Source of the DNA: an uncultured Acidobacteriaceae bacterium
GTDB taxonomy: Bacteria; Acidobacteriota; Terriglobia; Acidiferrales; UBA7541
Assembly (NCBI GenBank): GCA_964622265.1
Contig: CAZUNI010000008.1
Location: forward strand, 4,424 to 68,423
DNA: 64,000 nt
Reading direction: 5' to 3'
A program made the position numbers and the translations under genes. Below are positions 28,110 through 54,853 of the stretch, in pieces. The notes under the pieces were generated by a model. It was not told where the DNA came from, did no database searches, and saw nothing but the letters and a program-made list of their open reading frames with translations. Every line of letters starts with the position of its first letter. Position 1 is the first letter of the stretch.

Positions 28110-28155
28110 TCTCATAACCCGAAGGTCGTTGGTTCAAATCCAACCCCCCCAACCA
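28110..28155 (+). repeat. tRNA-Met 3' half relic (anticodon loop CTCATAA through T-arm GGTTCAAATCC and ACCA end), copy A
   Basis: tctcataacccgaaggtcgttggttcaaatccaacccccccaacca. There is no complementary 5' acceptor or anticodon-stem strand upstream, so it is not an intact tRNA. It matches copy B at 45 of 46 positions. Confidence 0.85.
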
Positions 28156-28176
28156 GCTATCATATTTGTTTTTCAA

Positions 28177-28208
28177 GGGCTTGCTCGAAGTGAGCAGGCC
28201 CATTTTTT
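28177..28208 (+). terminator. Rho-independent terminator-like hairpin downstream of tRNA relic A
   Basis: gggcttgctc-gaagt-gagcaggccc followed by a T6 run. A homologous hairpin occurs at 54875-54903. Confidence 0.7.
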
Positions 28209-28733
28209 AGGTTTTTATTGCCAGCGGTTTTCACTCCCGTTCCAAAGTCTAAGACAGCGACGTCCCACAATTCGGGGACGTTTCTTTCGCTCGATAAAGG
28301 CGCACAGTAAGGCCATTTGGTACGACTTCGCCGTCTAAAAATCCACAATCGAAAAATTTCAGCCTTGCGGAAAGCGGAAACCGGCCGAAAAGGATTGACG
28401 AATTCACTTCGCTTGCGGTCGACGAAGAATTCTTCAACCTGATTTCTGGTCTAAAGGCCTTTACAGGAAAGGGGCGCCAATCGCAAGAAGCCGCTCTAGT
28501 CCCCCTTGTCGGGTGAAGTACGATGGCCACTTGAATTGGGTCTATATGGAGAGTTTTGGAAAAGATGGTTCGCGAATCGAGTATCATAGAGCTCTCTTGA
28601 TGCTGAAATTAGTTCGAATCTTCCGATGGATTGTCTGCCCTTTGTCTCGGGTGGCTTTAGGTCTGCCACACGAGATGGATGTTCAAGGTATTCTACGGCT
28701 GGGGAGTTTCACCCTGGAGCGGTCCAGGAGACG
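28209..28733 (+). promoter_or_regulatory. long non-coding leader upstream of mgtA-like gene (possible cation-sensing leader)
   Basis: About 520 nt without a convincing ORF precede the SD-supported ATG at 28734. The function is unverified. Confidence 0.25.
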
Positions 28734-31427
28734 ATGACAACACCGAATGTGGATCCCACATCACCGACCGTGCCCGCCGACGCCGGGACGCCAAGCCCTA
28801 ATCTCGCCTCCCCACAGGCTCCTCCCAAAGAGCCGCCGGTTCCAACCAAATCGAAGAAGCAAACTATACATGTTTCTCCAGCAGTGCTCGACGCCGCTGG
28901 GAAAAAGGAAGATGAGTTACTACGCGACTTGCGAACGTCTCCAGGTGGGCTTACACAGGCCGAGGCTGAAGAACGGGCGCGCACGGCGGGCCCCAATGAA
29001 GTCGCACAGGCGCGCAAGCAAGGCTCGTTTATCCGCCTATTGAAAATCACTCGCAACCCTCTGGTAATTCTGCTGTCGTCCCTGTCTGCAATTTCTTATT
29101 TAACGGGCGATGCGCGCGCCGGCACCGTAATGGTGATTATGGTGATGCTGAGTGTAGGACTGCGCTTCTGGCAGGAGACACGCGCGGACGCTGCAGCAGA
29201 GAAGCTCAAGGCCATGATCCACGTGACCGCTACAGTGGTGCGCGATGGAGCGCCCCGGGAATTGCCACTGCGGGATTTGGTGCCTGGGGACATGATCAAG
29301 CTGGCTGCCGGCGATATGATTCCGGGCGATGTGCGGTTGCTGTCTTCGAAAGACGTCTTTGTGAGCCAGGGCAGCCTCACCGGTGAATCGCTTCCCGTCG
29401 AGAAGTTCCACGATCCTCAAACTAAAGAGGATTGCTCACCCACCGAACTCAACAATATTTGTTTCATGGGGACCAGCGTCGAGAGCGGCACGGCGACGGC
29501 AGTAGTGGTCACGACGGGAGTTCAAACCTACTTAGGGAGCATGGCCAAGTCGATCACCGGCGAGCGGGAGCTAACGAGTTTCGATCAGGGGCTCAACCGC
29601 TTCACCTGGCTGATGATGAAGTTCATGGCCGTCATGGTACCAATGGTCTTTTTCATCAATGGTTTCACCAAGCACGATTGGAAGGGGGCTTTCTTTTTCG
29701 CGTTGGCCGTAGCTGTAGGACTCACTCCTGAAATGCTCCCTATGATTGTCTCAGTCTGCCTTTCCAATGGCGCGCTGGCCATGAGCCGCAAAAAGGTCAT
29801 CGTCAAGCGGCTGAACTCCATCCAGAACTTCGGCGGGATGGACGTGCTGTGCACCGACAAGACGGGCACGCTCACCGAGGACCGCGTCGTCCTGATGCGG
29901 CACTGCAACGTCGCCGGGCGTGAATCAGATGACGTGCTCCTGGACGGCTACCTGATCAGCTACTTCCAGACTGGCCTGAAAAACCTGCTCGACCGGGCGA
30001 TTCTCGATACGCCCGACTTCCACGCGAAGACGACTCTGGATAAGTACAAGAAGCTCGATGAGATTCCGTTCGATTTCACGCGACGCATGATGTCGGTCTT
30101 AGTACAAGACCCAGAAGGCAAGGCGATCCTGCTGACGAAGGGGGCTCCCGAAGAGGTCTTTCACCACTGTTCCCAATTCGAACTCGATGAAAAACTTTCT
30201 GCAATGGACCCGGATAAGATCGCAGGCCTGAAGAAGCAGTACGACGACCTAAGCAACGACGGTTTCCGCGTGCTAGCCGTGGCCACAAGGGAACTCGCTG
30301 GCAAGCACATATGCGCACGGGAAGACGAACGCGACCTTGTGCTCAGAGGATACGTCGCGTTCCTGGACCCGCCCAAGCCCACCGCAGCACGCGCCCTGGC
30401 GGCCCTGCATAAGCACGGCGTATCCGTGAAAATTCTTACAGGCGACAATCAACTGGTTAGCCGTAAAGTTTGCAACGACGTTGGCCTTCAGGCAGATCCC
30501 ATGCTGCTGGGTGGCGACGTGGAGAAAATGTCCGACGTCGAACTGGCCGAAGCCGCCGACAAGGCCACGCTATTCGCCCGCCTTTCCCCCGCCCACAAAG
30601 AGCGCGTCATCCACGTCCTTCGTGGCAAAGGGCACGTCGTCGGATTTATGGGCGACGGAATCAACGATGCCCCCGCCTTGCGAGCGGCGGACGTCGGCAT
30701 CTCCGTGGACACCGCTACGGACATCGCCAAGGAGTCTGCGGATCTGATTTTGCTAGAGAAGGACCTCACGGTGCTCGAAGGGGGCGTCCTCGAAGGACGC
30801 AAGGTCTTCGCCAACATTGTTAAGTATATCCGGATGGGTGCGAGCTCCAACTTTGGGAACATGTTCAGCGTGCTTGGGGCGAGTGCTTTCCTTCCCTTCC
30901 TGCCAATGGCCCCGATTCAGGTTTTGACCAACAATCTGCTCTACGATTTCTCGCAGGTTCCGATCCCTGCGGACTCCGTGGACGAAGAACAAGTCTCCCG
31001 GCCGCGGCCCTGGAACATCGACGAACTCAAGCGGTTCATTCTCTTTATCGGTCCCATCAGTTCGATTTTCGACTACACGACTTTCTTCGTCATGCTTTAT
31101 GTCTTCAAGTGCTGGGATCCGGCCCGCGCGCCGCTATTTCAAACCGGCTGGTTCGTCGAATCGTTAATGACGCAGACGCTGATTATCCATGTCATTCGCA
31201 CCAACAAAATTCCATTCCTGCAGAGCCGGGCGAGTTGGCCGTTGACGGGCACAACGTTAGCCATCATGGCGCTTGGAATCTGGCTGCCCTATTCCCCATT
31301 GGCTTCCTCACTGGGCTTCGTGCGCCTGCCGGGATTGTACTGGCCGATTCTGCTAGTCACACTGCTGGGCTACATGGGCCTTACGCAGATTACTAAGGTG
31401 TCCTTGTTGCGAAAGCACTGGATTTAA
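28734..31427 (+). CDS. mgtA: magnesium-translocating P-type ATPase
   Basis: CTDKTGTLTEDRV phosphorylation motif, TGDN, GDGINDAPAL, and an MgtA-like C-terminal TM bundle. The start is set at the ATG preceded by aggaga. The ORF extends upstream to 28626. Confidence 0.9.
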   Translation: MTTPNVDPTSPTVPADAGTPSPNLASPQAPPKEPPVPTKSKKQTIHVSPAVLDAAGKKEDELLRDLRTSPGGLTQAEAEERARTAGPNEVAQARKQGSFIRLLKITRNPLVILLSSLSAISYLTGDARAGTVMVIMVMLSVGLRFWQETRADAAAEKLKAMIHVTATVVRDGAPRELPLRDLVPGDMIKLAAGDMIPGDVRLLSSKDVFVSQGSLTGESLPVEKFHDPQTKEDCSPTELNNICFMGTSVESGTATAVVVTTGVQTYLGSMAKSITGERELTSFDQGLNRFTWLMMKFMAVMVPMVFFINGFTKHDWKGAFFFALAVAVGLTPEMLPMIVSVCLSNGALAMSRKKVIVKRLNSIQNFGGMDVLCTDKTGTLTEDRVVLMRHCNVAGRESDDVLLDGYLISYFQTGLKNLLDRAILDTPDFHAKTTLDKYKKLDEIPFDFTRRMMSVLVQDPEGKAILLTKGAPEEVFHHCSQFELDEKLSAMDPDKIAGLKKQYDDLSNDGFRVLAVATRELAGKHICAREDERDLVLRGYVAFLDPPKPTAARALAALHKHGVSVKILTGDNQLVSRKVCNDVGLQADPMLLGGDVEKMSDVELAEAADKATLFARLSPAHKERVIHVLRGKGHVVGFMGDGINDAPALRAADVGISVDTATDIAKESADLILLEKDLTVLEGGVLEGRKVFANIVKYIRMGASSNFGNMFSVLGASAFLPFLPMAPIQVLTNNLLYDFSQVPIPADSVDEEQVSRPRPWNIDELKRFILFIGPISSIFDYTTFFVMLYVFKCWDPARAPLFQTGWFVESLMTQTLIIHVIRTNKIPFLQSRASWPLTGTTLAIMALGIWLPYSPLASSLGFVRLPGLYWPILLVTLLGYMGLTQITKVSLLRKHWI

Positions 31428-31472
31428 ACGGGCATTTCCTGCGGCGACGCCCAAAACTAGGAGGGTTCAAGA

Positions 31473-32168
31473 ATGCCCATAAGAAACAAGGAACGGCACC
31501 GCACAGAACGCATCGGCTGGCTGCGCGCGGCAGTGCTGGGCGCAAACGACGGCATCCTTTCAACATCCAGTTTGGTGCTCGGCGTCGCAGCGGCCCACGC
31601 GACTCACAGCAACGTAATGATCGCCGGGGTCGCCGGCCTGGTGGCTGGGGCTATGTCGATGGCTGCCGGCGAGTACGTGTCGGTCCATTCACAGGCAGAC
31701 ACGGAACAGGCCGATCTCGATATCGAACGCATGGAACTCAAGAAAGACAACGCGGGTGAGCACAAGGAACTGGCTGCGATCTACGTTAACCGAGGCCTGG
31801 ATCCTTCGCTCGCGAAGCAGGTCGCCGACCAATTGATGGCTCATGACGCGCTAGGCGCGCATGCCCGCGATGAACTCGGAATCAACGAAACCGTGCGCGC
31901 GCGTCCGATTCAGGCAGCTTTGGCATCGGCTGCCAGTTTCGCTGTTGGAGCGGCCATGCCATTGCTGGTCACTGTCATTTCCCCCGCAGCGCATTTGATC
32001 CCTTTTGTCTCCGGATCTTCGTTGGCGTTCCTCGCGCTTCTGGGAGGCCTGGCTGCCCGCGCGGGTGGCGCAGGGGTGACGATAGGCGCATTTCGTGTGA
32101 CGTTCTGGGGTGCGTTGGACATGGCCGTCACCGCAGGCATCGGGCGGCTATTCGGAACAGTGGTGTGA
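31473..32168 (+). CDS. VIT1/CCC1 family iron/manganese transporter
   Basis: GANDGILSTSSLVLGVAAA motif, a central acidic helix (EQADLDIERMEL) and C-terminal TM helices. Confidence 0.85.
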   Translation: MPIRNKERHRTERIGWLRAAVLGANDGILSTSSLVLGVAAAHATHSNVMIAGVAGLVAGAMSMAAGEYVSVHSQADTEQADLDIERMELKKDNAGEHKELAAIYVNRGLDPSLAKQVADQLMAHDALGAHARDELGINETVRARPIQAALASAASFAVGAAMPLLVTVISPAAHLIPFVSGSSLAFLALLGGLAARAGGAGVTIGAFRVTFWGALDMAVTAGIGRLFGTVV

Positions 32169-32460
32169 GCAGGGCTATCAAGAAGTCTTTCCCAAGCTAC
32201 TCCCAAGATCGAACCACGCCTACTTTTCCTTTCTTTTCACTGTCTCGGATCCACTGATATTCCCGTAACATCTCGAAATTACGTCCACTCCTGGTCTCGA
32301 TTCTCAGCGTGCTGCGCGCAAAATTGTGCCAGGCACATCATCCGACAACAATCCTGGCCCCTGTTTGGATACATGGTTGGGTACAAGTAAAAGCGTGAAA
32401 ATTGAGGAGTTACCTTCGGACGCAACATCAGGTAAACGAGATATAGTTCTTGACTTCATC

Positions 32461-32506
32461 TCTCATAACCCGAAGGTCGTTGGTTCAAATCCAACCCCCG
32501 CAACCA
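32461..32506 (+). repeat. tRNA-Met 3' half relic, copy B (left junction of the integrated element)
   Basis: tctcataacccgaaggtcgttggttcaaatccaacccccgcaacca. There is no 5' half upstream. The recombinase ORF on the opposite strand ends inside it. Confidence 0.85.
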
Positions 32507-34133
32507 TCCGAATGCGCCAGTCTGACGGCTGGCGCTCTCGGGCCACAACCGGGTCACTGCCGAGCAAGTTCCAGTTTCCTTCCGCCACATAGAAGCGATG
32601 CTCTGCGTTTTGGTACGGCGTCATCGTGATTTCGCTCGTGTGTTTCAAAAGTTCCGCCCTGGCAAGGGCGGAGTCCTTGCGCAGCAGTTCCCGAAGATTT
32701 CCCAAGCGGCTCGCCACGAAAGTCCGTATCTCGCCAATGCGTGCTTCAATCGATTCGGGGCTTGCTGATAGCAGGCGATCTGTGATCCCTTGCAACTCCG
32801 CTTCCTTCCGAGCAATCTCCGCGAGCAGAGCTTTCGAGTGTCCCGATTCCGCAATCGCTGCCGCCACGCGGCGTACTTCCATTTCCAGCCGTGCCTTTCG
32901 CTGACGCATCTCTGCAAGATCGCCAGACAAACTACCGAGCGCGATTCCAAGCTGTCTTTGAAACTCCACAATGGCGTGGTCCACAGCTTCTGGCCGCAAT
33001 ATTTCGCTTTGGAGTTTTCCGAGAAGCAAGTCTTCGAGATCATCGCGCCGGATATAGAGATCGTTTTCGCAGCCGCCGCGATTGAAACGCCGAGAGCACG
33101 CATACTTTGGATGTCGGTGCGTCCCGCCGCCAGTGGCGATTATCAGGTTCGCGCCACACTCGCCACACTTTAGAATCCCGCTGAATAGATACGGGCTCGT
33201 CATCGCGCGCGGCACCAGGCCGGGGGCTTTTTGGTTCTCCCATCCGGCAGCGAGCAACGCAAAACGCGAGCGGACCGCTTTCCAGAGACCCGGGCCGATG
33301 ATGGCTAAGTCGGGGTTGGTGCTGCGCAGCCACTCTGATTCAGGTCGAGGCCGGCGCTGGCGCTTATTTGTCCCTGGCACCTTCACGAATTTCGAGCGGT
33401 TCCAAATGACTCTGCCGACGTACAACTCGTTCCTCAGCATCTCGCGGATTGCAGTAGGACACCATTCCCCGCCTGTTCGATCCTTGCGTGCGCGGGGTGA
33501 TGGCACGCACTCCGCGTTCAGCGTCCTAGCGATTGCTTTCAAGGAACTGCCAGCCGCAGAGAGATTAAAGATTCGCTTCACGATGGCCGCTTCAGTCTTG
33601 TTCACGACCAGTTTTTTTCCGGTTCCTCCATCGGTCGGCACCGAGTCATAACCGAAGATTCGCCCGCCGGTATGTCTCCCGCTGAGTGCGCGGCCCTCAA
33701 GACCACGGTGAGTTTTCTTCGCTAGTTCGCGCACGTAGCTCGAATCCACAAGCCCATGAATGGTGAGGAGTGTTTCTGCCTGCTCGTGCTCGCTATCAAT
33801 GCCTTGACTGACGGCAATAAGCTGCACGCCGGAGAAGTTCAATCGCTTAAAAATTGTGAGGACGTCTTCCGTCGTGCGCGACAAGCGGCTCGTATCGTCA
33901 ACGAGGATCGCGGCAAATGGCGGAGCCGAAGCGAACGCGAGCGCGAGCATCCGCTTCAACGCGGGCCGGTCCGAGCCGACGCCACTCACCGCCTCGTCTG
34001 CGTAGATGTGCTCAGACAGAATTGCGAGACCGTGAGTTCCCGCGTATTGTCGGCATTTCCGAATCTGATCGTCAATGGAAGCGGGACTTTGGCGGTCGGT
34101 AGAATAGCGTGCGTAGATTGCGGTGTAGCCCAT
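32463..34133 (-). CDS. large serine recombinase (integrase)
   Basis: N-terminal resolvase catalytic domain AIYARYSTDRQ, a recombinase domain, the zinc-ribbon CGECGANL...YACSRRFNRGGC and a coiled coil. The last 16 codons (VAGVGFEPTTFGL) are antisense to the tRNA relic. Confidence 0.9.
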   Translation of the reverse strand: MGYTAIYARYSTDRQSPASIDDQIRKCRQYAGTHGLAILSEHIYADEAVSGVGSDRPALKRMLALAFASAPPFAAILVDDTSRLSRTTEDVLTIFKRLNFSGVQLIAVSQGIDSEHEQAETLLTIHGLVDSSYVRELAKKTHRGLEGRALSGRHTGGRIFGYDSVPTDGGTGKKLVVNKTEAAIVKRIFNLSAAGSSLKAIARTLNAECVPSPRARKDRTGGEWCPTAIREMLRNELYVGRVIWNRSKFVKVPGTNKRQRRPRPESEWLRSTNPDLAIIGPGLWKAVRSRFALLAAGWENQKAPGLVPRAMTSPYLFSGILKCGECGANLIIATGGGTHRHPKYACSRRFNRGGCENDLYIRRDDLEDLLLGKLQSEILRPEAVDHAIVEFQRQLGIALGSLSGDLAEMRQRKARLEMEVRRVAAAIAESGHSKALLAEIARKEAELQGITDRLLSASPESIEARIGEIRTFVASRLGNLRELLRKDSALARAELLKHTSEITMTPYQNAEHRFYVAEGNWNLLGSDPVVARERQPSDWRIRMVAGVGFEPTTFGL

Positions 34134-34512: not shown

Positions 34513-34585
34513 TGTGGGCTGGAGCGACTCCACGTAACAGTTGGGCACGCCGCGTGCACAAATGGTGGGGTCGCTCCAGCCCACA
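34513..34585. repeat. long nested palindrome (16-bp perfect arms, central 13-bp palindrome)
   Basis: tgtgggctggagcgac (34513-34528) and gtcgctccagcccaca (34570-34585) are perfect reverse complements. GCACGCCGCGTGC (34545-34557) sits almost at the centre. Confidence 0.85.
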
Positions 34586-34877: not shown

Positions 34878-35840
34878 TCATATGCTCGCTGAAATGCCCT
34901 TTCGGTCCGACACTGGATAGGACGCTGATGCCTGAGTCCAGACCGAGCCGCGCCCGACTGCCTGTTCATCCACTACGAATCTCACAGCATGGCCAACTGC
35001 CTCAGCGATCTGACCCATATATTTTGAACGGAGATTGCGAGCGCACGTCTCGGTTATCGTCGCGAGAATGAGCGAACCGTCTGAAGAGAAGCCCAGAGGC
35101 ACGAGCGGTTGAATCCAGGTGGAGAAGTTGTGTGGGTTAATGTCCTGACGGAGTTGCGTCCGTGTGCGCGCCCAAGTCTCGCGCGCTTCAGCCTCGCGTT
35201 CGAGCGCCGGGAGGGATCGTGTCACTTGTGTATGAGCCCACGCTGCTGCGTCAATTGCTGAGTCAACTGCTGAGTCTTCTTTGCTGAGAACAATTGTGTC
35301 CCTTCTGGGAGGACCGTTGTGTCCGTTCTCAAAGATGGATTTGTCCCTTGTCTCATTCTCAGATGGGACATTTTTGTCCGATCTCTTGTCGCGCGACCAG
35401 ATTCCGAATTTTTGAGAATTAGTCACTGAGAGCACGAGACCGTAAGGGGTACGGCGAGCTAACAGGTAGTGATTCTTTACCAGACGCCGCAGATGCCGCT
35501 CCACCGTCTTCGCGCTCTCTTTTAGGTCACGGGCGATTTCTTCTGCCTTGACTGGCTTGCCTCCGAGTATCACTCCGACCATCCTTCCATTCTCTTCATT
35601 GTGCTCGCGCGTGATCTTGTCGAGACACCAAATGAATTCCCAGATCGCCGAGCCCATCCGCTTCCGGTGTTCGAGCAGGCCGCTCCACACGGGGATTGGG
35701 TATGATTTCCCGCAGCCGAAGCGCCTATCCTTCACCGGCCTGCCTTGCCAACGGTTGGCAGCGCCGACGCTTCTGGCTCCATTGCGGGCGGCGAGGTCGC
35801 AGAGTCGGTGGCGCATTCGGTTTCTTCGAGCGAGGTCCAT
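34878..35840 (-). CDS. winged-HTH protein with a C-terminal DnaA-N-terminal-like segment (putative element replication/regulatory protein)
   Basis: wHTH-like AEEIARDLKESAKTVERHLRRLVKNHYLLARR. C-terminal WARTRTQLRQDINPHNFSTWIQPLVPLGF...ILATITETCARNLRSKYMGQIAEAV resembles the DnaA N-terminal domain pattern. The start is uncertain because the long ORF overlaps the XRE gene by 109 nt. Confidence 0.45.
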   Translation of the reverse strand: MDLARRNRMRHRLCDLAARNGARSVGAANRWQGRPVKDRRFGCGKSYPIPVWSGLLEHRKRMGSAIWEFIWCLDKITREHNEENGRMVGVILGGKPVKAEEIARDLKESAKTVERHLRRLVKNHYLLARRTPYGLVLSVTNSQKFGIWSRDKRSDKNVPSENETRDKSIFENGHNGPPRRDTIVLSKEDSAVDSAIDAAAWAHTQVTRSLPALEREAEARETWARTRTQLRQDINPHNFSTWIQPLVPLGFSSDGSLILATITETCARNLRSKYMGQIAEAVGHAVRFVVDEQAVGRGSVWTQASASYPVSDRKGISASI

Positions 35841-46271: not shown

Positions 46272-46732
46272 CGGAGTATCACCCAGTAACTGAACGAAGA
46301 TTCTAATGCAATTTGGGATAGGATGAGCGGCCAAGTGGACCGGTCGAGTTCTTGCCCACGCAAATTGGATCACAACGATAGCGAGTGGCATCTCAGAACG
46401 AGGAACAGATTGGAAACAGAAAACATTTCTCGGGAAATTCCTGGATCACCCGTGAAACACTACATCGCAGTTCAACGAAATCCCCCTGAAGTCCTAGGTA
46501 GGTGGCCTTTTGCCAGTGTTCCGAAAACCCCTCCGAGCGGTTACCCGTAAGCCTTTGAATCTATACGGTAGGAAATCGGCGGTTAAGGTGTTCCGGAAAC
46601 ACTTGATTTTGAAGTGTTGGTGCCGAGCTGCAGGGCGCATCGGGATCGCCCGACGGAGCAGGACTCATATTTGAGTCTATTAAAAGTTTTTCGAACCTTG
46701 ACCGAGAAAAGCCAGATGCCGTACGGCAGCGG

Positions 46733-47476: not shown

Positions 47477-47480
47477 TGTT

Positions 47481-48521
47481 TTATTCGCCCGGACTCGAGT
47501 GGATTTCCGCCAAACTGAACAGTGAAGATGTTTCGCATTCGAGTCGATTCAACGCCAACTCATAATAGTGGCGGTCAATTTCAAAACCGATGCTGTTCCG
47601 TCCCCATTTCGCAGCCGCCACTGCCGTTGTTGCCGTTCCCATGAACGGATCGAGAATAGTGTCGCCTACGAAACTGAACATCCTAATCAGGCGCTCGGCC
47701 AGTTCCGAAGGGTACGGGGCCGGATGTTGCCGCGTCGAAGCACCCGTGACTCCAGACCAAATTTGCTGGAACCACTTTTTGTGGTTCTCTGCCGAGAGAA
47801 GGCTCAGCACTTTCTTCGAAATGTCGGGGGCCCTGTAACCTCCGGGTTTCCTCTCCATCAAGATAAACTCAATGTCATTCTTGATTACTCCGTTGGGTTC
47901 GTAAGGCTTTCCCAGAAAGCTTGAGCCGTTTTCGACCTCGTGTGCGGCATTTGAAATTTTGTACCAGATGATGGGTGCCAAGTTGTCATAACCGAGCTTT
48001 CGGCAGTGTTCCTGAATCGAAGCGTGTAAAGGCACAACGGTGTGCCTTCCTCCGTTTTCACGACGCGACAGGCACACGTCGCCAACGACAACGATCAAAC
48101 GCCCGCCTGGAACCAGGACCCTGAAGCAGTGGGCCCAAACCTTGTCGAGCTCGCCGAGGAACTCATCGTAATCCTCGATGTGACCGAGCTGACCGTCGGA
48201 ATCCCTATATTCTTTGAGCGTCCAATAAGGAGGAGAGGTGAGCACCAAGTGAACGCTCTCAGCCGGAACCGCATCTAGAACTCTGCCATCTCCGCGGTTG
48301 AGCCGGTGACGGGTTGGAACGCTCCGAACCGCCCGCTCGATTTCGAGAACGGCTTTCGGATCCTTGGCAAGCCGCGGGATTGCCGTCTGTGGATTGTCTA
48401 GCTCTACGAATCGCTTCGGGACGTAAACGGACAAGTCCCGTTCCGGCCCATCGGACTTTGCGGCCTCTCGCTTTGTCTTTGTCCCAAGCATCATCCCTCT
48501 ATTTCCCAAGCTATCGGCCAC
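47481..48521 (-). CDS. beta-class N4-cytosine/N6-adenine DNA methyltransferase
   Basis: Motif IV LVLTSPPYW precedes motif I VGDTILDPFMGTATTAVAA, which is the beta permutation. SPPY favours N4-cytosine specificity. Confidence 0.85.
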   Translation of the reverse strand: MADSLGNRGMMLGTKTKREAAKSDGPERDLSVYVPKRFVELDNPQTAIPRLAKDPKAVLEIERAVRSVPTRHRLNRGDGRVLDAVPAESVHLVLTSPPYWTLKEYRDSDGQLGHIEDYDEFLGELDKVWAHCFRVLVPGGRLIVVVGDVCLSRRENGGRHTVVPLHASIQEHCRKLGYDNLAPIIWYKISNAAHEVENGSSFLGKPYEPNGVIKNDIEFILMERKPGGYRAPDISKKVLSLLSAENHKKWFQQIWSGVTGASTRQHPAPYPSELAERLIRMFSFVGDTILDPFMGTATTAVAAAKWGRNSIGFEIDRHYYELALNRLECETSSLFSLAEIHSSPGE

Positions 48522-48602: not shown

Positions 48603-49952
48603 TTAACCAAGCGAAATGGTTCTACCCTGTGATTCGAGTGAGCTCATCAATTGCATGTGAGCGCGCCAACCGTCGCCCTCCGGATCCGCTTCGACTCGCA
48701 GCAGCCGATCGCCGCTTGGAGCATATCGCAACAACTGTTCACGGATGCCCGATCGCCCCAGAATCCAACATACGGTTCGGTGACGCGATAGCATCACGCA
48801 AAGACGGCCGGCGTCCAAATGAAACTCGGATGCATCGGCGCGCCCGGAGAGCGGATGGTGGACAAGCGTAATTTCCCGCTCGAGGCCCTGGAATCGGTCA
48901 GCCGTCTCGACCAGCACATCCGATAGATCGCTGGGAAGACGTTCACGCACGGCATTTACCTGTGAAACGTGTGCGCAAACAATGCCAATCATCGCGGGCG
49001 TAACCTGCCGTGAGGCATCTCCTTCTCTGATTCGCGCGGACCTTTCGAGCACGCGAACGGTCATTTCCACGAGTACCGTAGCCAATTCCTCGTCCACTTC
49101 ACCAACTATTCTTGCAGGAAGCCCGATGAAGGAAAGGCTCGCGCCGCCTTCGGCCGCGTCCAACGCTTGATCGGTTCTCTTCCGCCCCGAGATCGGGGTT
49201 GCAACAGCAAGCGTACGTGCGCCGCTTGGTGAGAGGGCCGCAAAATTCAAATCTGGATAGAAGGCAGGCTGAACAAAATTAACTGTGTCTTGCACGAGTC
49301 TTCTAGAAACGGGCAGGCTAAGGCGCTCAACTCCGCATAGACGCTTCACCAGCGAGACTGGACACGGAACGTGCGGGCCAGCGGGATCACACCGCCATCT
49401 TTCGATTTCACACCCAATGACGGGGGCGATTTGTCCTGGGTCGCCAACAAGTACGAATCGTCTCGCGAGGCAGGCGATCAGGTGAAACCGATAATCTGGC
49501 AACTGAAAAGCCTCATCGACGATCTGCAGATCGAAAGTTTGCTCATGGTGTTGAATCCACGACCACTTCCAAGCGTTCGCGATCACAACGCAGGGGCCCG
49601 CCGGAAGTTCATCGAACTGGTCGATCACCACAAGATTCTGGATCTGGGTCAATGAAGGAGGAAGCGTCAGGTCCCTCCGCGTGAGCAGATAGAAGGTATG
49701 TCGTGGGAATCCGCACGATAGTCGTCGCGCTAGATCGAAAGCTTGCTCGTTCGTCTGGGTGGCAATCATGCATCGCTCGCGCAGCAGCGCAAGCGATTGC
49801 ACAGCGAGACGCTCCACAATATCAGTTTTTCCTGCACCTGGAGGTGAGTCTAGACGAACGGCGGGAATGCCCGCCCACTGCGTTTCGAGAACTCGGCGCA
49901 CGGCTGCATCCGCCAATTCCTGTGGTGCCGTCGCAATTGTTGTTACGCTCAT
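48603..49952 (-). CDS. SF1 helicase-like P-loop ATPase (gene D of the four-gene operon)
   Basis: Walker A DSPPGAGKT, Walker B IVDEAFQLP, and motifs LVGDPGQIAPV, TADRFQGLERE and VMLSRHR. Confidence 0.8.
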   Translation of the reverse strand: MSVTTIATAPQELADAAVRRVLETQWAGIPAVRLDSPPGAGKTDIVERLAVQSLALLRERCMIATQTNEQAFDLARRLSCGFPRHTFYLLTRRDLTLPPSLTQIQNLVVIDQFDELPAGPCVVIANAWKWSWIQHHEQTFDLQIVDEAFQLPDYRFHLIACLARRFVLVGDPGQIAPVIGCEIERWRCDPAGPHVPCPVSLVKRLCGVERLSLPVSRRLVQDTVNFVQPAFYPDLNFAALSPSGARTLAVATPISGRKRTDQALDAAEGGASLSFIGLPARIVGEVDEELATVLVEMTVRVLERSARIREGDASRQVTPAMIGIVCAHVSQVNAVRERLPSDLSDVLVETADRFQGLEREITLVHHPLSGRADASEFHLDAGRLCVMLSRHRTVCWILGRSGIREQLLRYAPSGDRLLRVEADPEGDGWRAHMQLMSSLESQGRTISLG

Positions 49953-51397
49953 CGCAGGCCTTCAACGGCCGCGAGCAAATCAGCGGGCTTCGGGGTGCCC
50001 GTGGGTGAAGCGTCCGGGACCTGTCCGTTCTGGTGCGTCCAAACGGGTTGAGCAAGGCGGTCCCGCATCTGCTTTCGCAGCCGGATAATGCGATTCCAAT
50101 CAGGAGGAGAGGAGCCTAGCGACACCTCCTGGTCCGGCACAGGCAGCCCGACGGAACGCTTGCCCTGTAGCATTAAGACGGAAACCCGCTTGATTTGCCC
50201 GTTGCGGCGAACGTCCGTTATAACCACCTTCATTCGAGGATCGGCCAACAGATATAGCTCATCCCTCCGTCGGACGTGCAGCATTCTCTGCTCGGTCACG
50301 ACAGTGAACCGGCACTCAAACCGACGTGGAGATAAACGTGTTCTTACTGGATTTTCAACGATTCCGCACAAAATCCTCCCCGCCAACCGCTCGCGCTCAA
50401 AGTGGACCTTGTCGCCATAGAGCAACGCAGCGCGCGCGCCATCTGCGGCGTCCTCGCGGGAAGCCAAACGGAATGCCGCCGACTTCGGGCTGTCGCGCAG
50501 TGGCAACGCATGACCGAGCTCTCTCGATGTCATAAAAGAACGAAATTCATCCGCCTCTCGGGCTTCCAAACCGTCGAGATGCACAATTGGATCGAGTTGC
50601 TCTTGGATCAAAAGTGAGATCGCATCTTGTGTAGCTTCGTAGATTCGTAGGACCACTGGACGCAACACCGCTTCGATTCGCGAGGCCCGCGTCGCAAGTT
50701 CAGCGCTGGTAGCCTTTCTCTTTCGGGCCCCGTTGTATCGTGACACAAGCGGATCGAGCTCGTTGCGATCGAAATCCGGATCGGTCTTTACGCTCATCGG
50801 TAAATCTTCCGCAGCGGCGACGGCGGCCAAAACGTTTCGACCCGCAGGAGGGCGCATCCAGACAAGCAATGCACCCAAATGCTCATCTTCCGCTTCCTGC
50901 TGACCCGTAGCGAAATGCATCCTGAGTGCGCCGGTTGCCGTCACTAGAGCTTGCTGCCCTTCAACCGGAAAGCGTTCGGTGGCATAAGAAAGCAGTTCGC
51001 CGAAACGCTTCACGCGGAGATTTTCGCGATTGAACCGCAAACGGTCACCGAGTGTGTCCAGCAATCCCACCGCACCGGAGGATGGTAGCCAAATCTGCGG
51101 GTACGTTCCGTCCTGCTGACACTCTTCAAAATATCGCTCCACGCGTTCTCCGAGCCATTCAAAGAGATCATATTGGTCGTCCCGATAACGTGGATCCGGA
51201 ACACATCGAATGTCTGCTGGCTGGCCAAGGTGCCCGCACGCCACGATGTGGATCGTTGTGTCTTCTCCAGCCATCGCGATTGGGCAGATCACGAGTGCGT
51301 CTGGGCGGATTGCGATCCGCTGGTTGGATGCAATGCGGACAGCGCGTCCTTCTCGGAACGCCAGTAGCCTCGACACGACATTTAAAATATCGAGCAT
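49949..51397 (-). CDS. hypothetical protein (gene C of the four-gene operon)
   Basis: Uninterrupted ORF. The preferred ATG at 51397 lies 1 nt after the gene B stop (TGAGATG), and its stop overlaps the gene D start (ATGA). I recognise no motif. Confidence 0.55.
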   Translation of the reverse strand: MLDILNVVSRLLAFREGRAVRIASNQRIAIRPDALVICPIAMAGEDTTIHIVACGHLGQPADIRCVPDPRYRDDQYDLFEWLGERVERYFEECQQDGTYPQIWLPSSGAVGLLDTLGDRLRFNRENLRVKRFGELLSYATERFPVEGQQALVTATGALRMHFATGQQEAEDEHLGALLVWMRPPAGRNVLAAVAAAEDLPMSVKTDPDFDRNELDPLVSRYNGARKRKATSAELATRASRIEAVLRPVVLRIYEATQDAISLLIQEQLDPIVHLDGLEAREADEFRSFMTSRELGHALPLRDSPKSAAFRLASREDAADGARAALLYGDKVHFERERLAGRILCGIVENPVRTRLSPRRFECRFTVVTEQRMLHVRRRDELYLLADPRMKVVITDVRRNGQIKRVSVLMLQGKRSVGLPVPDQEVSLGSSPPDWNRIIRLRKQMRDRLAQPVWTHQNGQVPDASPTGTPKPADLLAAVEGLR

Positions 51398-51398
51398 C

Positions 51399-52502
51399 TC
51401 AGCCTGCCCTCCGCAGCGCCGCTGCCACCTCTTGAAGTTTCTCGGCCAACGCCCTTTCAGCTTCCGTCCTGGGTCGCGTGCCATGGAGGAGGTCTGCAGC
51501 ACGCGAAATTGAACCCGCCGGAATCAAGAGTTCTTTCGCCTGTTCGCCCAGGAGGATTGGATCCTGAGTGGCAATCGCAGCTTGCTTGCAGTGCTTCGCT
51601 AAAGCGCAGTATTCACGGCAATTCGAGCGATAACTGTTCGGCACAGCTTCCAGGACCCTTGCCTGGTCGAGCCTCCCGCCTGCGGGTAGTAATGCTTCGA
51701 GTTCGTCGAGATTTCTGGGTGCTTCCCCAAATGCACGCTCGAGGGAAGCCACTTCGTTGCGAATCGTCATTTCGCTTAGCCGTCCTTGACGCGACGCAGG
51801 AATACGCAACACTAGATCGCAGATTGGCGGAACGGCCGTAGTCGCTTCGGGAATTCCAAGCCGCTCCGCAACTTGGCGAAGAGAAACAACAGCAACCGCA
51901 GCCTGGCGGCAGGCGCTGCGGAGGTCTGCCGGATCTGTTTTGCCTGCGCGGTCCGAATACGATTTCAGTTCAATCGGGCGGTAGAATTTGTCCGCGTCTG
52001 CGGCCACGATAGCATCCGGCTCGATTCCGTGTTCAATACCGAGCAGCGCGACAGTCAACCGTGGTTTGATAATCAAATTTGGGGCCGCCGCATCTCCAGA
52101 TGCTTTGAGGCGAAGAAAGCGGAGCGTCTCCGCAGCACGCTGCGCGACAACGCGGGGCCCCACTCCGGGGACCAGATCGGGAATCACGACAACTTTGCAC
52201 TCAGCGGTAGTGAGGTGCTCCGCGTCGCGCAGAAGCTTCAGAAGGGCTGCCGCGCCGTCTTTGATCAATCCCTGCTCAAAAGCGTTGCCGATTGCTAAAG
52301 CAAATGGCGACTGCCCTCGCTGCGTCTGTTCTCCATAAACACTTTCGGCGGCAGTCTTCGGCGTGATTCCTGCAATCGTTAACGCGCGCAGCCTCGTGCA
52401 TTCCGGATTCCGGGCGATGCGTTCAATTCCTCGCGCGCCGGGTTCCTCAGCGGGCAAGCTTCCCCGTAAATGCGCAAGTCGTTGATCAACTGGCAAGCTC
52501 AT
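51399..52502 (-). CDS. Cas4/RecB-like PD-(D/E)xK nuclease candidate (gene B of the four-gene operon)
   Basis: GIEPDAIVAAD...YRPIELKS (GxxD ... ExK), plus one N-terminal Cys (NPECTRL) and the C-terminal cluster CREYCALAKHC (C-x3-C-x5-C), reminiscent of Fe-S Cas4/AddB nucleases. Confidence 0.5.
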   Translation of the reverse strand: MSLPVDQRLAHLRGSLPAEEPGARGIERIARNPECTRLRALTIAGITPKTAAESVYGEQTQRGQSPFALAIGNAFEQGLIKDGAAALLKLLRDAEHLTTAECKVVVIPDLVPGVGPRVVAQRAAETLRFLRLKASGDAAAPNLIIKPRLTVALLGIEHGIEPDAIVAADADKFYRPIELKSYSDRAGKTDPADLRSACRQAAVAVVSLRQVAERLGIPEATTAVPPICDLVLRIPASRQGRLSEMTIRNEVASLERAFGEAPRNLDELEALLPAGGRLDQARVLEAVPNSYRSNCREYCALAKHCKQAAIATQDPILLGEQAKELLIPAGSISRAADLLHGTRPRTEAERALAEKLQEVAAALRRAG

Positions 52503-53359
52503 CGTCCGGCTGCCTTCCTGATGGAGCCAGTATGGCCTTCAATTACCGCAGGGCGGCCCCAAAGTTGCGCGTACGCAGGAAGTTTCAAAAGTTCCGGAAC
52601 ATCGGCTTTGCGTTCTCCAAGGTCGAGAGATTCGATCGCATCGAGCTCGGATTGTGCCGCTTCGCGAATTTGATCCGTATCGATTTCGTCCGCCGTGGAA
52701 GTTGCACCGGGAATGCTACGCGCGTAGCGCCGCAGTAATTCAAGGAGCCTGTCGCTGCTACCCGAAGCCTTCGTTTGATTCAATACGGTGAGGCGTCGCA
52801 GCAGGGCAAACACGGTCTTCAAATGGTTGACCCGCAGAGTGCGAGGCCCGATTAGCCTTCTTTCCGGCTCCCAAACTGAACTTACCACTAGCCGGGGGAT
52901 GGCTCGAAATCCTCGCGCGTTCAATGCGGGAACCAACCAAGCGGGTCTCGCCAGCGAATCCCTTCGATATGCGCTGTGCTCGTCTCTCCGCAAACTCGCA
53001 AACCTACCCGCAGGAACTAACATTCCGAACCAGACAGCAGCGCATTCGGAGAGCGTTCCCGGAGAAGAAGGGACTCCCAACTCGTCCAGGATGTCCAACA
53101 CCACTTCTCGAATCGGACGCTGTCCGGAGCGCGCGTTGTACGCGCCATAGCGTTCGGGCTTTTCCAGATCGCACAGCTTTAAATCTTGCACAATCCGCTG
53201 GTGCTGAGAGTTCAGACGGGCAACAACTGCTTGAATCTCGTCAATCGCGTTGGAAGAACTACCCGGGCTCGCAAGAAGCTTTCCCAATTCGGCAAGGGCG
53301 ACCTGTTGTTTTTTTACTACCGCCGCAAGCCGGCTTTTCAAGTGCGCTGTCTGATTCAT
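52499..53359 (-). CDS. hypothetical protein with N-terminal coiled coil (gene A of the four-gene operon)
   Basis: 286-aa ORF whose stop overlaps the gene B start (ATGA). It has a coiled-coil-like N-terminus and a possible wHTH (PIREVVLDILDELGVPSSPGTLSE). Confidence 0.5.
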   Translation of the reverse strand: MNQTAHLKSRLAAVVKKQQVALAELGKLLASPGSSSNAIDEIQAVVARLNSQHQRIVQDLKLCDLEKPERYGAYNARSGQRPIREVVLDILDELGVPSSPGTLSECAAVWFGMLVPAGRFASLRRDEHSAYRRDSLARPAWLVPALNARGFRAIPRLVVSSVWEPERRLIGPRTLRVNHLKTVFALLRRLTVLNQTKASGSSDRLLELLRRYARSIPGATSTADEIDTDQIREAAQSELDAIESLDLGERKADVPELLKLPAYAQLWGRPAVIEGHTGSIRKAAGR

Positions 53360-53436
53360 GGAACAAGTCTAGCATTCCACGCTTTTCCACGCAAGTCCAT
53401 AATGAGCCGATTCTGTCGCCGTGGTAGTGCGGTGCG

Positions 53437-54075: not shown

Positions 54076-54365
54076 TCGTGTCTAAAGGACTTAGGAAAAC
54101 AGACTATCAAGCGTGGCAAATTATTCTTGCCTTGACGCCCATATTCCGTCCCTTGCCACTCCTCCAGCCGCTGGAGGTAGAAACTCAGAAGTTGGTGTGA
54201 GGTTCCCATCTCGGCTGCGAGTGTCCGCAGCGAACTCCTGAACGATTCCGGCGTGTGCTTCCACTCCATGAGTCTTGCTCGAATCTCTGCCGCGCGAGAT
54301 TCACTAGTGGGCTTGCGCCCTCGCTTATGGCGGGTAGCATTAACGGGCTTGGACGATCCATTCAT
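54072..54365 (-). CDS. small hypothetical protein (possible HTH)
   Basis: 97-aa ORF with a 4-nt overlap with the downstream gene. LRTLAAEMGTSHQLLSFYLQRL is HTH-like. Confidence 0.35.
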   Translation of the reverse strand: MNGSSKPVNATRHKRGRKPTSESRAAEIRARLMEWKHTPESFRSSLRTLAAEMGTSHQLLSFYLQRLEEWQGTEYGRQGKNNLPRLIVCFPKSFRHD

Positions 54366-54408
54366 TGAACTTTGCCCTCTGGCTCACAGTCCGGTTTACG
54401 ATTTCGCA

Positions 54409-54771
54409 TTACAGGCGATTTGCCGAAGCAAACCGTTCGTCTTGCCCGTCACCCTGAATGAACTGACTTTCGACGACAGGCGGTGCGTTGTGACGCGGCA
54501 CCCGGCCATCCGTCGAACAATCGCGGTCGAACTTTCTTCCGCAATGTGGGCATCGGCCGCTTCTCGCCTTCCGTCGTTTCTCTTGCATCCGCTCTCGTTT
54601 GTCTGCTCGTCGGCATTCTTGGCCGCAAAAATTGCGGTCGTATATCGGGCGCCCATCGCTTCCAATGAGGAGCTTGCCGCATCCTGCGCGGCTGCACACT
54701 CGTCCTCGGACGTTAGACGTCGGCTCAATGCGACCCGGTATTTGCGGCTGTGCGGGAAATGTTTCCATCAA
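54409..54771 (-). CDS. small Cys-rich zinc-ribbon-like protein
   Basis: CSRAGCGKLL...FCGQEC...CPHCGRKF cysteine pairs. It is one of three overlapping frames, chosen for the CxxC pairs. Confidence 0.35.
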   Translation of the reverse strand: MMETFPAQPQIPGRIEPTSNVRGRVCSRAGCGKLLIGSDGRPIYDRNFCGQECRRADKRERMQEKRRKARSGRCPHCGRKFDRDCSTDGRVPRHNAPPVVESQFIQGDGQDERFASANRL

Positions 54772-54841
54772 GCCGCCACGTCTGGGACGAGTTCAAATCG
54801 GTAGGGGAGAATTAGGGCTGTCGCGTTCGGAGCGTTGCAAG

Positions 54842-54853
54842 CCCCCGCAACCA
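54842..54853 (+). repeat. 12-nt copy of the tRNA-Met 3' tip (right junction of the integrated element), copy C
   Basis: cccccgcaacca is identical to 32495-32506. It is followed by actatcat and a terminator hairpin homologous to the sequence following copy A. Confidence 0.75.

Follow-up and report, generated by a model that had tools for sequence, protein, structure and literature searches.

Tandem arrays of genomic islands built at tRNA and tmRNA genes by tyrosine integrases have been described, with the sublocation scheme of Williams, 2002 and the Islander signature (PMC4383910) as points of reference. Among serine enzymes, a CcrB-like integrase, DsiB, is carried by the ssrA-specific islands of Dehalococcoides (PMC3146451). 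Serine recombinases have also been reported at tRNA genes, in Mycobacterium AICEs (tRNA-Leu) and phage phiRSM (tRNA-Ser; PMC3218068) and in Paracoccus phage vB_PamS_Pami6, which integrates into tRNA-Met (PMC6536676); the authors of these reports call such use of a tRNA rare. Cis-mobilisable elements (CIMEs) and accretion arrays of ICE and IME families have been reviewed (PMC5704250).

The locus considered here lies in a 64,000-nucleotide stretch (the window) of C8, a 107-kb contig of genome G000, which is a 108-contig MAG of a soil acidobacterium of the class Terriglobia, from rhizosphere metagenomes. What the window contains is very probably the distal portion of a composite array, made up of integrative elements that accumulated at a single tRNA-fMet gene and involving two recombinase classes and two sublocations. 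A first-pass annotation had proposed successive integrations at the anticodon loop and at the 3' tip; this is supported and largely right: the loop appears to have been used by tyrosine integrases, with complete islands in relatives as the template, and the last 12 nt by a large serine recombinase (LSR). The pieces of the gene and their surroundings are as follows.

28008-28109, forward strand: family-1 P arm, the apparent right end of a tyrosine-integrase-type element left of A
28110-28155, forward strand: relic A, displaced tRNA-fMet 3' half, anticodon loop to CCA
28156-28212, forward strand: tRNA-type flank after A, with GCTATCAT, a hairpin (terminator) at 28177-28201 and a T run
32330-32460, forward strand: family-2 P arm, with the tandem repeat TTGGATACATGGTTGGGTACA at 32365-32385
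32461-32506, forward strand: relic B, tRNA-fMet 3' half, identical at 45/45 nt to the intact gene
54842-54853, forward strand: relic C, CCCCCGCAACCA, the right copy of a 12-bp repeat (attR core)
54854-54925, forward strand: native-type tRNA-fMet flank after C, with ACTATCAT, a terminator hairpin at 54875-54897, a T run and CCCAATGGTTATC

All three relics derive from the 3' part of the initiator gene, tRNA-fMet. The earlier description of A and B as 46-nt copies differing at one base and starting just 5' of the anticodon loop, and of C as the last 12 nt only, has been reproduced in coordinates and sequence, while the assignment to tRNA-Met has been kept and refined to the initiator. Relics A and B share their start position exactly, one nucleotide 5' of the loop CTCATAA; their opening T is not derived from the tRNA, because the gene has G there, which leaves 45 nt identical to the gene. 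Their single difference (C/G) lies at the position pairing with acceptor-stem base 3, and the G-to-C change in A would unpair that base from base 70. No match like that of A and B was found in 100 dinucleotide shuffles. The 12 nt of C, CCCCCGCAACCA, are the acceptor 3' strand plus ACCA; about 0.008 such matches are expected by chance in 64 kb, and C is accepted as real because the sister genome G015 ends a homologous island with the same 12-mer, with flanking island DNA 87.5% identical. As had been reported, no intact tRNA overlaps A or B: ARAGORN finds none in the window or in the whole of C8, and an Rfam search gave no matches.

The sole intact copy, at C53:3411-3487, lies on a contig other than the window's and is identified as the initiator by its C1-A72 mismatch and GGG/CCC anticodon stem; it is the genome's single initiator tRNA gene. 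Of the two fates suggested for the functional 5' half, loss or a position beyond the window, the first is discarded, the functional gene being intact on C53. The physical linkage of C53 to the window's contig is presumed only, and this counts against the reading as an array. Additional 3' relics lie at C7:486, C66:1654, C66:11295, C41:202 and C8:106879, and one 5' relic at C53:371; genome-wide, 3' relics number seven at the least, beside the one 5' relic. The 10 tRNA-fMet matches in this genome are the highest number among 31 related genomes, the others having 1-5, and at least eight relatives carry relics beginning at position 33 (or 27). Genes conserved upstream of tRNA-fMet in relatives map here to C2:2458-3494, with no tRNA after them, a further point against the array reading.

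The flanks following A and C had been called homologous to each other and that following B unrelated, and alignment confirms this. The first two have in common R-CTATCAT and, beyond a spacer, the hairpin GGCTTGCT..AGCA(A/G)GCC with a T run behind it. The flank after A is 92% identical to the sequence directly 3' of the intact tRNA-fMet in relative L072, and that after C aligns, CCCAATGGTYATC motif included, with the flanks of L064 (intact tRNA) and L063 (family-1 attR). The sequence 3' of C is the ancestral tRNA flank. The empty site sought in relatives is present in L064 and L072, where the conserved upstream genes are followed by an intact tRNA-fMet and then by the GCTATCAT-hairpin flank. 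For this strain itself, neither an excised circle nor an empty site was seen in contig-level public data, which drop rare forms. That native-type flanks follow both A and C also counts against the array reading, as it calls for either a flank copy carried by an element or a rearrangement.

The anatomy around A and B, together with complete islands in relatives, suggests that the two are displaced 3' halves left by anticodon-loop tyrosine-integrase elements. In G011 and G012 these islands run from the tRNA through a P' arm that bears a tandem repeat, the integrase, the cargo and a P arm with the same repeat to a 45-nt relic and the native flank, and both of their ends share the arm design seen before A. 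The family-1 arm includes a degenerate tandem repeat, GTGAGAAAGATTTGGGACAGAA, at 28026-28047 and matches sequences upstream of the relics C66a and C66b at 88-89% identity along some 130 nt; tandem TGGGAAAGA repeats occur before A, C66a and C66b and also just downstream of the intact C53 tRNA, and a relative's contig, L063, joins a family-1 arm to a relic and native flank. The family-2 arm matches the region upstream of the relic at C7:486-531 at 82% identity over 133 nt. The tandem repeats of the arms probably bind integrase. No tyrosine integrase was found adjoining the intact gene or any relic in this genome, and the family-1 and family-2 elements are therefore known from their arms only. 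The arms also match up poorly across the array: after C66b comes a GGGAACA-type P' arm, and the P arm that matches it is 100 kb away, at C8:106778. Deletions or rearrangements must therefore be assumed.

Such elements would recombine in the 7-nt anticodon loop: since each would carry its own 3' 45 nt, integration would rebuild the gene and push the old 3' half, with the DNA downstream, to the far end. Relics A and B would be such old halves, and just before each would stand the right (P) arm of its displacing element. The cognate integrase genes would since have gone from the window, leaving the family-1 end, which adjoins a response-regulator gene and the EPS locus, and the 4.3-kb cassette between A and B.

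28249-28587, reverse strand: 112-aa ORF or mgtA leader region, with no family match
28626-31427, forward strand: MgtA-type Mg2+-translocating P-type ATPase (TIGR01524, 1159.7 bits against a cut-off of 610.75; Pfam matches)
31473-32168, forward strand: VIT1/CCC1-family metal transporter (PF01988, E = 3.5e-64)

This cassette and the doubled native-type flank could instead stem from events between older relics, whether ectopic homologous recombination, deletion or segmental duplication, with no family-2 integration, MgtA and VIT1 then being ordinary chromosomal DNA caught between scars. We regard this as rather unlikely, though it deserves some weight. No integrase, excisionase, transfer or recombinase gene was found between A and B, the cassette GC (0.559) equals the genome mean, and a VIT1 3' fragment lies elsewhere on C8. 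The flank after A is of the native tRNA type and not an arm whose repeats match those of the family-2 P arm, and other points of the array show mismatched arm families. The foreign assembly contig L114 has MgtA-VIT1-B-LSR with another left neighbor and no relic A, but its MgtA is mosaic and it may be chimeric. Integration, on the other hand, is favored by the 130-nt arm before B, which is common to the independent C7 relic and has tandem repeats typical of integrase arm sites, and by the identical start base of the two relics.

The DNA from B to C is a separate, intact-looking island, apparently the best preserved of the elements, with cargo predicted to serve in anti-phage defence.

32507-54841, no strand assigned: putative LSR-mobilised island, 22.3 kb, with conserved ends and variable defence cargo
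32463-34133, reverse strand: LSR, 556 aa (Pfam Resolvase, Recombinase and Zn_ribbon_recom)
34878-35840, reverse strand: HTH and DnaA_N-like protein of the recombinase-proximal module (PF11638, E = 2.4e-10)
39152-39760, forward strand: small serine recombinase of resolvase/invertase type, 202 aa (PF00239, E = 8.7e-49)
39810-46391, reverse strand: Avs-like STAND/NACHT NTPase, 2193 aa (Pfam NACHT and Cap4_nuclease)
46733-47476, reverse strand: XhoI-type restriction endonuclease (PF04555, E = 6.7e-78)
47481-48521, reverse strand: N6/N4 DNA methyltransferase (PF01555, E = 6.8e-39)
48603-53359, reverse strand: four-gene operon, the last gene an SF1 helicase (helicase domains), the rest without annotation
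54834-54841, forward strand: island-side sequence beside the core, GTTGCAAG, forming an inverted repeat with the core GCAAC

The NTPase has an N-terminal Cap4/LmuA-type nuclease (PADLOC Avs1b, E = 8.4e-24; LmuA, E = 6.2e-11); three of the four genes in the helicase operon matched no PADLOC family. The G015 island has an LSR 93% identical to that of the window and carries the 12-bp repeat twice; its DNA is 90.7% identical over the first 2.4 kb and 87.5% over the last 0.76 kb, and the region of the small serine recombinase is kept (86% DNA identity), while the middle cargo differs.

The LSR gene lies at the tRNA-proximal end of the island, its last 14-15 codons and stop codon antisense to relic B, the final 12 nt of which form the left direct-repeat copy (attL). 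All three domains and the catalytic serine motif are present, with the motif YARYSTDRQ intact; we infer that the enzyme is catalytically active and the island mobile at present. Among 15 homologous loci, which come from several phyla, 12 have the LSR gene adjoining a tRNA-fMet 3' end, that of an intact gene in seven and of a partial copy in five; one further locus, L051, is attP-like, with only the 12-mer and then a sequence like the island end, a related c(c/t)tgcaac following the core. GTTGCAAG precedes the 12-mer at both right ends of the G015 LSR islands, and a low-depth contig of run X1 joins a related island end to another species' native flank. These comparative data show the last 12 nt of tRNA-fMet to be the target of the LSR. 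The stretch CCCCCGCAACCA is nearly invariant among bacterial initiator tRNAs.

The junctions joining all these segments are not assembly artefacts. Binning of a 108-contig MAG from rhizosphere metagenomes might have produced chimeric joins at repeated tRNA fragments, so that A, B and C were not true neighbors; the fragment is present at least 8 times, Logan k=31 contigs end at A and B, and contig ends flanked by IS are joined differently in different assemblies. This is scarcely credible, however, as at least seven contigs of other assemblies (MEGAHIT k141, JGI) repeat the order response regulator-A-MgtA-VIT1-B-LSR, or parts of it, at 99-100% identity. In other metagenome assemblies L112, L113 and L115 show it in full, preceded by NusG; the B junction recurs in L116-L119, so that L112-L119 bridge it, and the A junction in L066. 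In four runs, Logan contigs span the C junction, the LSR reading frame runs through B, two contigs of G015, a different species, have the same relic-LSR-island-12-mer layout, and sequencing depth is equal across the segments.

The LSR island would have recombined within CCCCCGCAACCA, the short repeat then forming the end of B and C. Either the LSR acted first, with later tyrosine-integrase insertions upstream, or it may have entered an already displaced half. The half-tRNA copies might also be kept for a function, as spare LSR landing sites (attB decoys) or as expressed tRNA-like RNAs: each 46-nt copy keeps the whole tRNA-side half of the LSR target, a partial copy and not an intact gene stands at 5 of the 12 LSR loci, and B is still identical to the gene at 45/45 nt. 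We consider this very improbable, because other copies decay (the acceptor mismatch of A; C41, 84% and C8:106879, 80% identical to the gene), no Rfam family or tRNA-like fold was detected, and later upstream insertions explain equally well the LSR genes beside partial copies.

The EPS locus may plausibly lie inside an island as well: the family-1 arm adjoins A on that side, the EPS side is low in GC, and the exosortase is patchy in the genus. The leftward link to the next relic (C66) passes through a repeated IS, and other assemblies disagree on it.

Like the arrays of the Williams scheme and Islander (PMC4383910), this one sets displaced 3' fragments, in direct orientation, beside an intact gene. 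The block of identity reaches from the anticodon loop to the 3' end, tandem-repeat arms stand on either side, the newest element is nearest the gene and segments between relics lack an integrase. Unlike them, it has no tyrosine integrase left beside gene or relics, its arm families pair poorly, the gene has lost its ancestral upstream neighbors and the relic number is the highest among the 31 related genomes (10 versus 1-5). The A-B cassette resembles CIMEs (PMC5704250) in being att-flanked, devoid of recombination and transfer genes and in tandem with a recombinase-bearing element; in contrast to CIMEs, trans-mobilisation is not expected, since the neighboring LSR acts at another sublocation than the enzyme that made A and B.

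The island resembles those of DsiB (PMC3146451) in several ways. Both kinds encode, on the reverse strand at attL, a serine integrase of 540-556 aa, and in both the 3' end of a small stable-RNA gene recurs as a short direct repeat, of 20 bp in Dehalococcoides and 12 bp in the window, that lies within the integrase gene's own 3' end. Both also have a second serine recombinase of roughly 200 aa and tandem arrays with variable cargo, and the best match of the LSR among curated models is likewise CcrB. The target, however, is tRNA-fMet and not tmRNA, the small recombinase lies 5 kb away on the other strand and not in one operon with the LSR, there is no ParB/Mom/RecF module, and the hosts are Acidobacteriota and other soil phyla. 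As in the reported serine-recombinase cases (PMC3218068, PMC6536676), the 3' part of a tRNA gene serves as the apparent attB; here, though, the element is non-phage and carries defence cargo, its LSR is no more than 35.5% identical to the closest phage LSRs, and the family occupies the initiator tRNA across several phyla. Serine recombinases that target tRNA genes are rare and have already been reported, so the event is of a known sort, while the pairing of recombinase and target is uncommon.

Three 3' fragments of a tRNA-Met gene, here called relics A, B and C, lie in direct orientation in the window, where the first-pass annotation had placed them; A and B are each 46 nt long and differ from one another by a single base.

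28110-28155: relic A, from the anticodon loop
32461-32506: relic B, from the anticodon loop
54842-54853: relic C, CCCCCGCAACCA

No intact tRNA accompanies them: ARAGORN returned nothing for the window or for the whole of its 107-kb contig, C8, and Rfam had no match to the window or, scanned separately, to 27.8-32.7 kb. The source gene was found elsewhere in this metagenome-assembled genome (G000; 108 contigs, 4.3 Mb), which encodes three tRNAs with a CAT anticodon. One of them, at C53:3411-3487 on a separate contig, is the initiator tRNA-fMet, with its C1-A72 mismatch and GGG/CCC anticodon stem. From the anticodon loop to CCA, 45/45 nt of B and 44/45 nt of A agree with this gene, and C equals its last 12 nt; the T with which A and B begin does not come from the tRNA, the gene having G at that position. 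The 5' half had been proposed either to have been lost or to lie beyond the window; the intact gene on C53 shows that it was not lost. The flanking sequences are likewise as originally read, those after A and C being alike (R-CTATCAT, a spacer, the hairpin GGCTTGCT..AGCARGCC and a T run) and that of B being different, in that it passes directly into a recombinase gene. Further relics of the same tRNA were detected outside the window:

C7:486-531: 3' relic
C66:1654-1699: 3' relic (C66a)
C66:11295-11340: 3' relic (C66b)
C41:202-245: decayed 3' relic, 84% identical
C8:106879-106922: decayed 3' relic, 80% identical, ~38 kb past the right end of the window
C53:263-422 (locus L001): 5' relic with duplicated promoter, 3 kb upstream of the intact gene

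In all, the genome has at least seven relics from the 3' side and one from the 5' side, and 10 matches to tRNA-fMet as against 1-5 in the others among 31 related genomes; an intact gene at one end with a direct-orientation fragment at the other is seen in relatives G011 and G012 and in the sister genome G015. The observation of A, B and C is thus real and its interpretation as an integration hotspot is supported, the hotspot being a known kind of structure. Stacked islands at tRNA genes are textbook biology, and as such the hotspot is nothing unusual.

The assembly, a bin drawn from rhizosphere metagenomes, was compared with independent contigs. Logan contigs (k=31) have even depth on all segments but are interrupted at A and B, which is what 46-nt repeats would be expected to cause, and so cannot reveal excision or empty sites there; the C junction is crossed in four runs. 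The order NusG-RR-A-MgtA-VIT1-B-LSR (LSR, large serine recombinase) is reproduced in three contigs from other assemblies (L112, L113 and L115), the B junction in four more (L116-L119) and the A junction in one (L066), all at 99-100% identity. One further contig, L114 (ENA k141_1271349), has MgtA-VIT1-B-LSR at 99% identity, with a mosaic MgtA gene whose 5' part has diverged, a Ham1-like gene to its left and no relic A; strain variation, recombination or contig chimerism may account for it. In this bin, as seen at C8, C66, C53, C2, C95, C104 and C106, most contig ends lie in copies of two insertion sequence (IS) families, one with an rve_3 transposase, many contig ends having 50-55 nt in common. 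The breaks in the assembly near the hotspot are due to these IS copies and not to the tRNA relics; in 8/8 assemblies inspected, C53 ends on its left at an IS.

Relics A and B are each preceded by a recognizable element arm. The ~100-130 nt before A are 88-89% identical to the sequences before C66a and C66b (family 1), and a tandem pair of TGGGAAAGA is found in all three of these places as well as at C53:3542, just past the intact gene. The 130 nt before B are 82% identical to the sequence preceding the relic on C7 (family 2), with a tandem TTGGRTACA repeat. Tandem repeats sharing one motif between the P' arm (the element end beside the intact gene) and the P arm (that beside the relic), though with other motifs, occur in G011, G012 and G015. 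Complete islands are present in the first two of these (16.8 kb in G011, 7.6 kb in G012), where the order is intact tRNA-fMet, P' arm with terminator and tandem repeat, tyrosine integrase, cargo, P arm repeating the tandem motif of the P' arm, a 45-nt relic starting in the anticodon loop, and native flank. Because of these arms and of the G011 and G012 islands, A and B are read as attR-type scars of tyrosine-integrase elements with crossover in the anticodon loop. The tyrosine integrase adjacent to attL in the relatives is absent next to the intact gene on C53, PF00589 matches lying on other contigs, and neither the A-B cassette nor the element ending at A contains an integrase gene. Directly after the intact tRNA (C53:3724-5677, part of L001) lie an unknown ORF, a CagX/VirB9 gene and a truncated, 184-aa VirB4/TraG P-loop fragment, the latter two being the remnant of an ICE (conjugative element); a gene for a DUF7933-repeat adhesin of ~5900 aa follows. 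One of the PF00589 matches, a 425-aa tyrosine integrase preceded by a tandem GTAGCCCAA repeat, is on the unplaced 1635-nt contig C98, which looks like the tRNA-proximal end of an element severed by the assembler at the repeat.

The comparison with relatives for an empty site, which had been proposed, was made by a pattern scan of metagenome contigs for the tRNA 3' end followed by RYTATCAT, giving 13 loci. In L064 and L072 the genus-wide upstream genes are followed by an intact tRNA-fMet gene and then by GCTATCAT and the same hairpin, while L063 has a family-1 arm, a relic and the same native flank; an extra CCCAATGGTYATC motif is common to the C flank, L064 and L063. These loci supply the empty site that the proposed comparison required. 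The flank after C is the ancestral flank of tRNA-fMet. DNA-level synteny of the right flank was not obtained against 40 relatives, the species being too diverged. The flank after A is 92% identical to that of L072, and only a 112-aa ORF, MgtA and VIT1 lie between it and B, with no recombination or transfer gene; in being att-flanked and without such genes, the A-B cassette resembles a CIME, and a tyrosine integrase matching it was not found. Two origins are possible for the A flank: a copy carried by the family-2 element along with its tRNA half, or a rearrangement. That the A-B cassette arose by rearrangement is considered rather unlikely. Past the window, C8:89656-89865 holds a fragment for the C-terminal 70 aa of a VIT1 protein, 84% identical to the one in the cassette; a decayed family-2 arm after this fragment was looked for and is unsupported, homology ending at the stop codon.

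To the left of A lie the exosortase exopolysaccharide (EPS) genes, and here it must be asked whether they too are inside the array. On balance it is slightly favored that C66a and A bracket some 35 kb including the EPS locus. The family-1 arm adjoins the regulator, PilZ, NusG-like and exosortase EPS genes; GC on the EPS side is 0.52-0.53, falling to 0.49 beside A, values at the 0-8th percentile of 5-kb windows in a genome that averages 0.561; exosortase is found in 5/15 same-genus relatives, where it is not near tRNA-fMet; and two contigs, L078 and L105, connect C66 via a 1.3-kb IS to the start of C8, with C66 so oriented that its relics C66a and C66b run collinear with A, B and C. Against this, the same IS leads to C95 in two other contigs and to C106 in one, at least 760 nt are identical between its copies, and the first 100 nt of C8 recur at the start of C95; since the C66-IS-C95 and C66-IS-C106 joins cross an exact IS repeat, the C66-IS-C8 join has been downgraded. 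The lowest GC of the window, 0.49, is at 25001-28109, below all 817 5-kb windows of the genome; this segment, at the edge of the exosortase EPS genes, encodes a NusG-like paralogue, a PilZ protein and a LuxR-type response regulator.

The array as a whole is much eroded. In every same-genus relative, and in L064 and L072, tRNA-fMet is preceded by two genes that in this genome lie at C2:2458-3494, where a secreted-protein gene comes after them instead of a tRNA; the initiator gene has thus been separated from its ancestral neighbors. The 5' relic near it consists of ~108 nt of promoter region and the first 40-49 nt of tRNA-fMet (85-87% identical), and with the intact gene brackets an NmrA-like gene and an epoxide-hydrolase gene; it could reflect a 5'-side integration or a duplication. 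The P' arm after C66b has a tandem GGGAACA (C66:11164) whose matching P arm is at C8:106778, before the decayed relic at C8:106879, and such poor pairing of arms indicates that the array underwent deletions or rearrangements. An element with the GGGAACA repeats at C66:11164 and C8:106778-106922 as its two ends would span >100 kb, with housekeeping-like genes inside. The relic on C7 (C7:1-1500, L004) is followed by GTTATCATA and a palindromic MITE-like insert, with a tRNA-Gly gene at a distance of 1.9 kb; the two small ORFs (97 and 110 aa, belonging to no family) that close the LSR island at 54195-54708 recur, inverted and at 95% DNA identity, ~300 nt upstream of the arm of the C7 relic. The genome thus serves as an example of a far-eroded hotspot, with integrases lost, arms mismatched and the sole initiator gene away from its ancestral neighbors, and as a caution for automated island callers that need an integrase and an intact tRNA.

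The stretch between B and C (32507-54841) is a different kind of element, containing its own integrase gene:

32463-34133, minus strand: LSR gene, with Resolvase, Recombinase and zinc-ribbon domains
B-C cargo: Avs1b-like NACHT protein, 2193 aa, with a Cap4/LmuA nuclease head
B-C cargo: XhoI-type endonuclease and its methyltransferase
B-C cargo: four-gene operon with an SF1 helicase
B-C cargo: several unknown genes

The 556-aa LSR has an N-terminal resolvase domain (PF00239, E = 1.9e-26) with its catalytic motif, YARYSTDRQ, intact at residues 7-15, and a C-terminal part matching PF07508 (E = 8.7e-22) and the zinc ribbon PF13408 (E = 7.3e-14). The ends of the island can be delimited from G015, whose array begins with the intact gene, a 24-kb island with a tyrosine integrase and a relic. 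There follow a 6.4-kb LSR island with the right end GTTGCAAG-CCCCCGCAACCA, a further stretch and another relic; a second LSR island, of 24.2 kb and with an LSR 93% identical, has the right end GAGCGTTGCAAG-CCCCCGCAACCA, followed by the GGGCTTGCT hairpin. The larger island matches the window over its first 2.4 kb (90.7%), a small resolvase-type gene (86%) and its last 0.76 kb (87.5%), with nothing shared between these segments; the resolvase-type gene (202 aa) that is kept lies 5 kb from the LSR gene on the opposite strand. In run X1, moreover, there is a low-depth contig in which a variant right end of the island is fused to the native flank characteristic of other same-genus species. The G015 islands and this contig identify the 12-bp repeat as the att core of an LSR element whose ends are conserved and whose cargo is swappable. 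Strain-level attP or an empty attB at C gave no signal in the Logan contigs (k=31). At 34513-34585, in the recombinase-proximal module, is a 73-nt palindrome detected as an inverted self-match, with an 83% match on C83. The island, its ends conserved and its cargo differing between two species, is a compact natural carrier of defense genes, and the ends help to delimit its unannotated genes and prioritize them as defense candidates.

The att sites of the LSR are simple, a 12-bp core with no arm sites, and the island-side GTTGCAAG is kept in three islands. The attP junction is predicted to read ...GAGCGTTGCAAG-CCCCCGCAACCA-TCCGAATGCGCC..., and the repaired site after excision ...AATCCAA-CCCCCGCAACCA-ACTATCATCTG.... 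The LSR ORF ends at 32463, inside B, so that the attL repeat lies in the 3' end of the gene, as in 12 homologous loci, and its last 14-15 codons and stop codon are antisense tRNA sequence. A role for this tail as a functional switch altered by excision was considered and rejected, the homologues crossing the tRNA in three frames and the tail not being conserved as protein; given these three frames, and an ORF of 570 aa in the reconstructed attP form, just 14 aa longer, the tail is incidental. A scan for LSR homologues, with one genome per species, gave 15 loci at 41-93% identity. Their 3' end adjoins an intact tRNA-fMet gene, antisense, in 7/15 and a partial copy in 5/15; one (L051) has only TGGTTGCGGGGG, followed by sequence resembling the island's other end, and looks like an unrecombined attP. 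The hosts, as annotated, are Terriglobia, other Acidobacteriota, Verrucomicrobiia, Dormibacterota and Eisenbacteria. The best-scoring model for the LSR is the CcrB equivalog NF047343, though at 117.8 bits against a cut-off of 900 it is not a member, and phage LSRs of the INPHARED set are distant relatives, at most 35.5% identical. Somewhat more probably than otherwise, the LSR represents an undescribed clade of CcrB-like serine integrases that use as their attB core the acceptor end of the initiator tRNA gene of bacteria, CCCCGCAACCA, which has identical letters in E. coli tRNA-fMet.

It is this family, with its use of the conserved initiator-tRNA acceptor end, that is worth pursuing. The integrase is well delimited, with predicted attL and attR and a reconstructed attP, and it targets the best-conserved part of a gene that is essential and near-universal. 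If the assignment is true, one family with exchangeable defense cargo could settle in phyla as different as Acidobacteriota, Verrucomicrobiota, Dormibacterota and Eisenbacteria (51-93% protein identity), and the LSR could double as a broad-host-range landing system; a recombinase with a core site in almost every bacterium would be attractive for engineering the genomes of non-model soil bacteria.

Tandem tRNA-gene islands formed by tyrosine integrases are standard, and the authors of Islander stated in 2014 that no serine integrase was known to have a tRNA gene as its target (PMC4383910). Such use is rare, a few cases having already been reported: AICEs of Mycobacterium in tRNA-Leu and phage phiRSM in tRNA-Ser are serine-recombinase examples (PMC3218068), and Paracoccus phage Pami6 integrates in tRNA-Met (PMC6536676). 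The closest analogue of the LSR island is the family of ssrA islands of Dehalococcoides, which occur in tandem arrays and encode a 540-aa CcrB-like serine integrase on the reverse strand at attL, with a 20-bp repeat of the tmRNA 3' end inside the integrase gene, and a second serine recombinase of ~200 aa (PMC3146451). As in dsiB (PMC3146451), the LSR gene is target-proximal, on the reverse strand and has the attL repeat in its 3' end; it differs from the CcrB/DsiB systems in that their partner small serine recombinase is co-transcribed, whereas the 202-aa resolvase here is not in the LSR operon.
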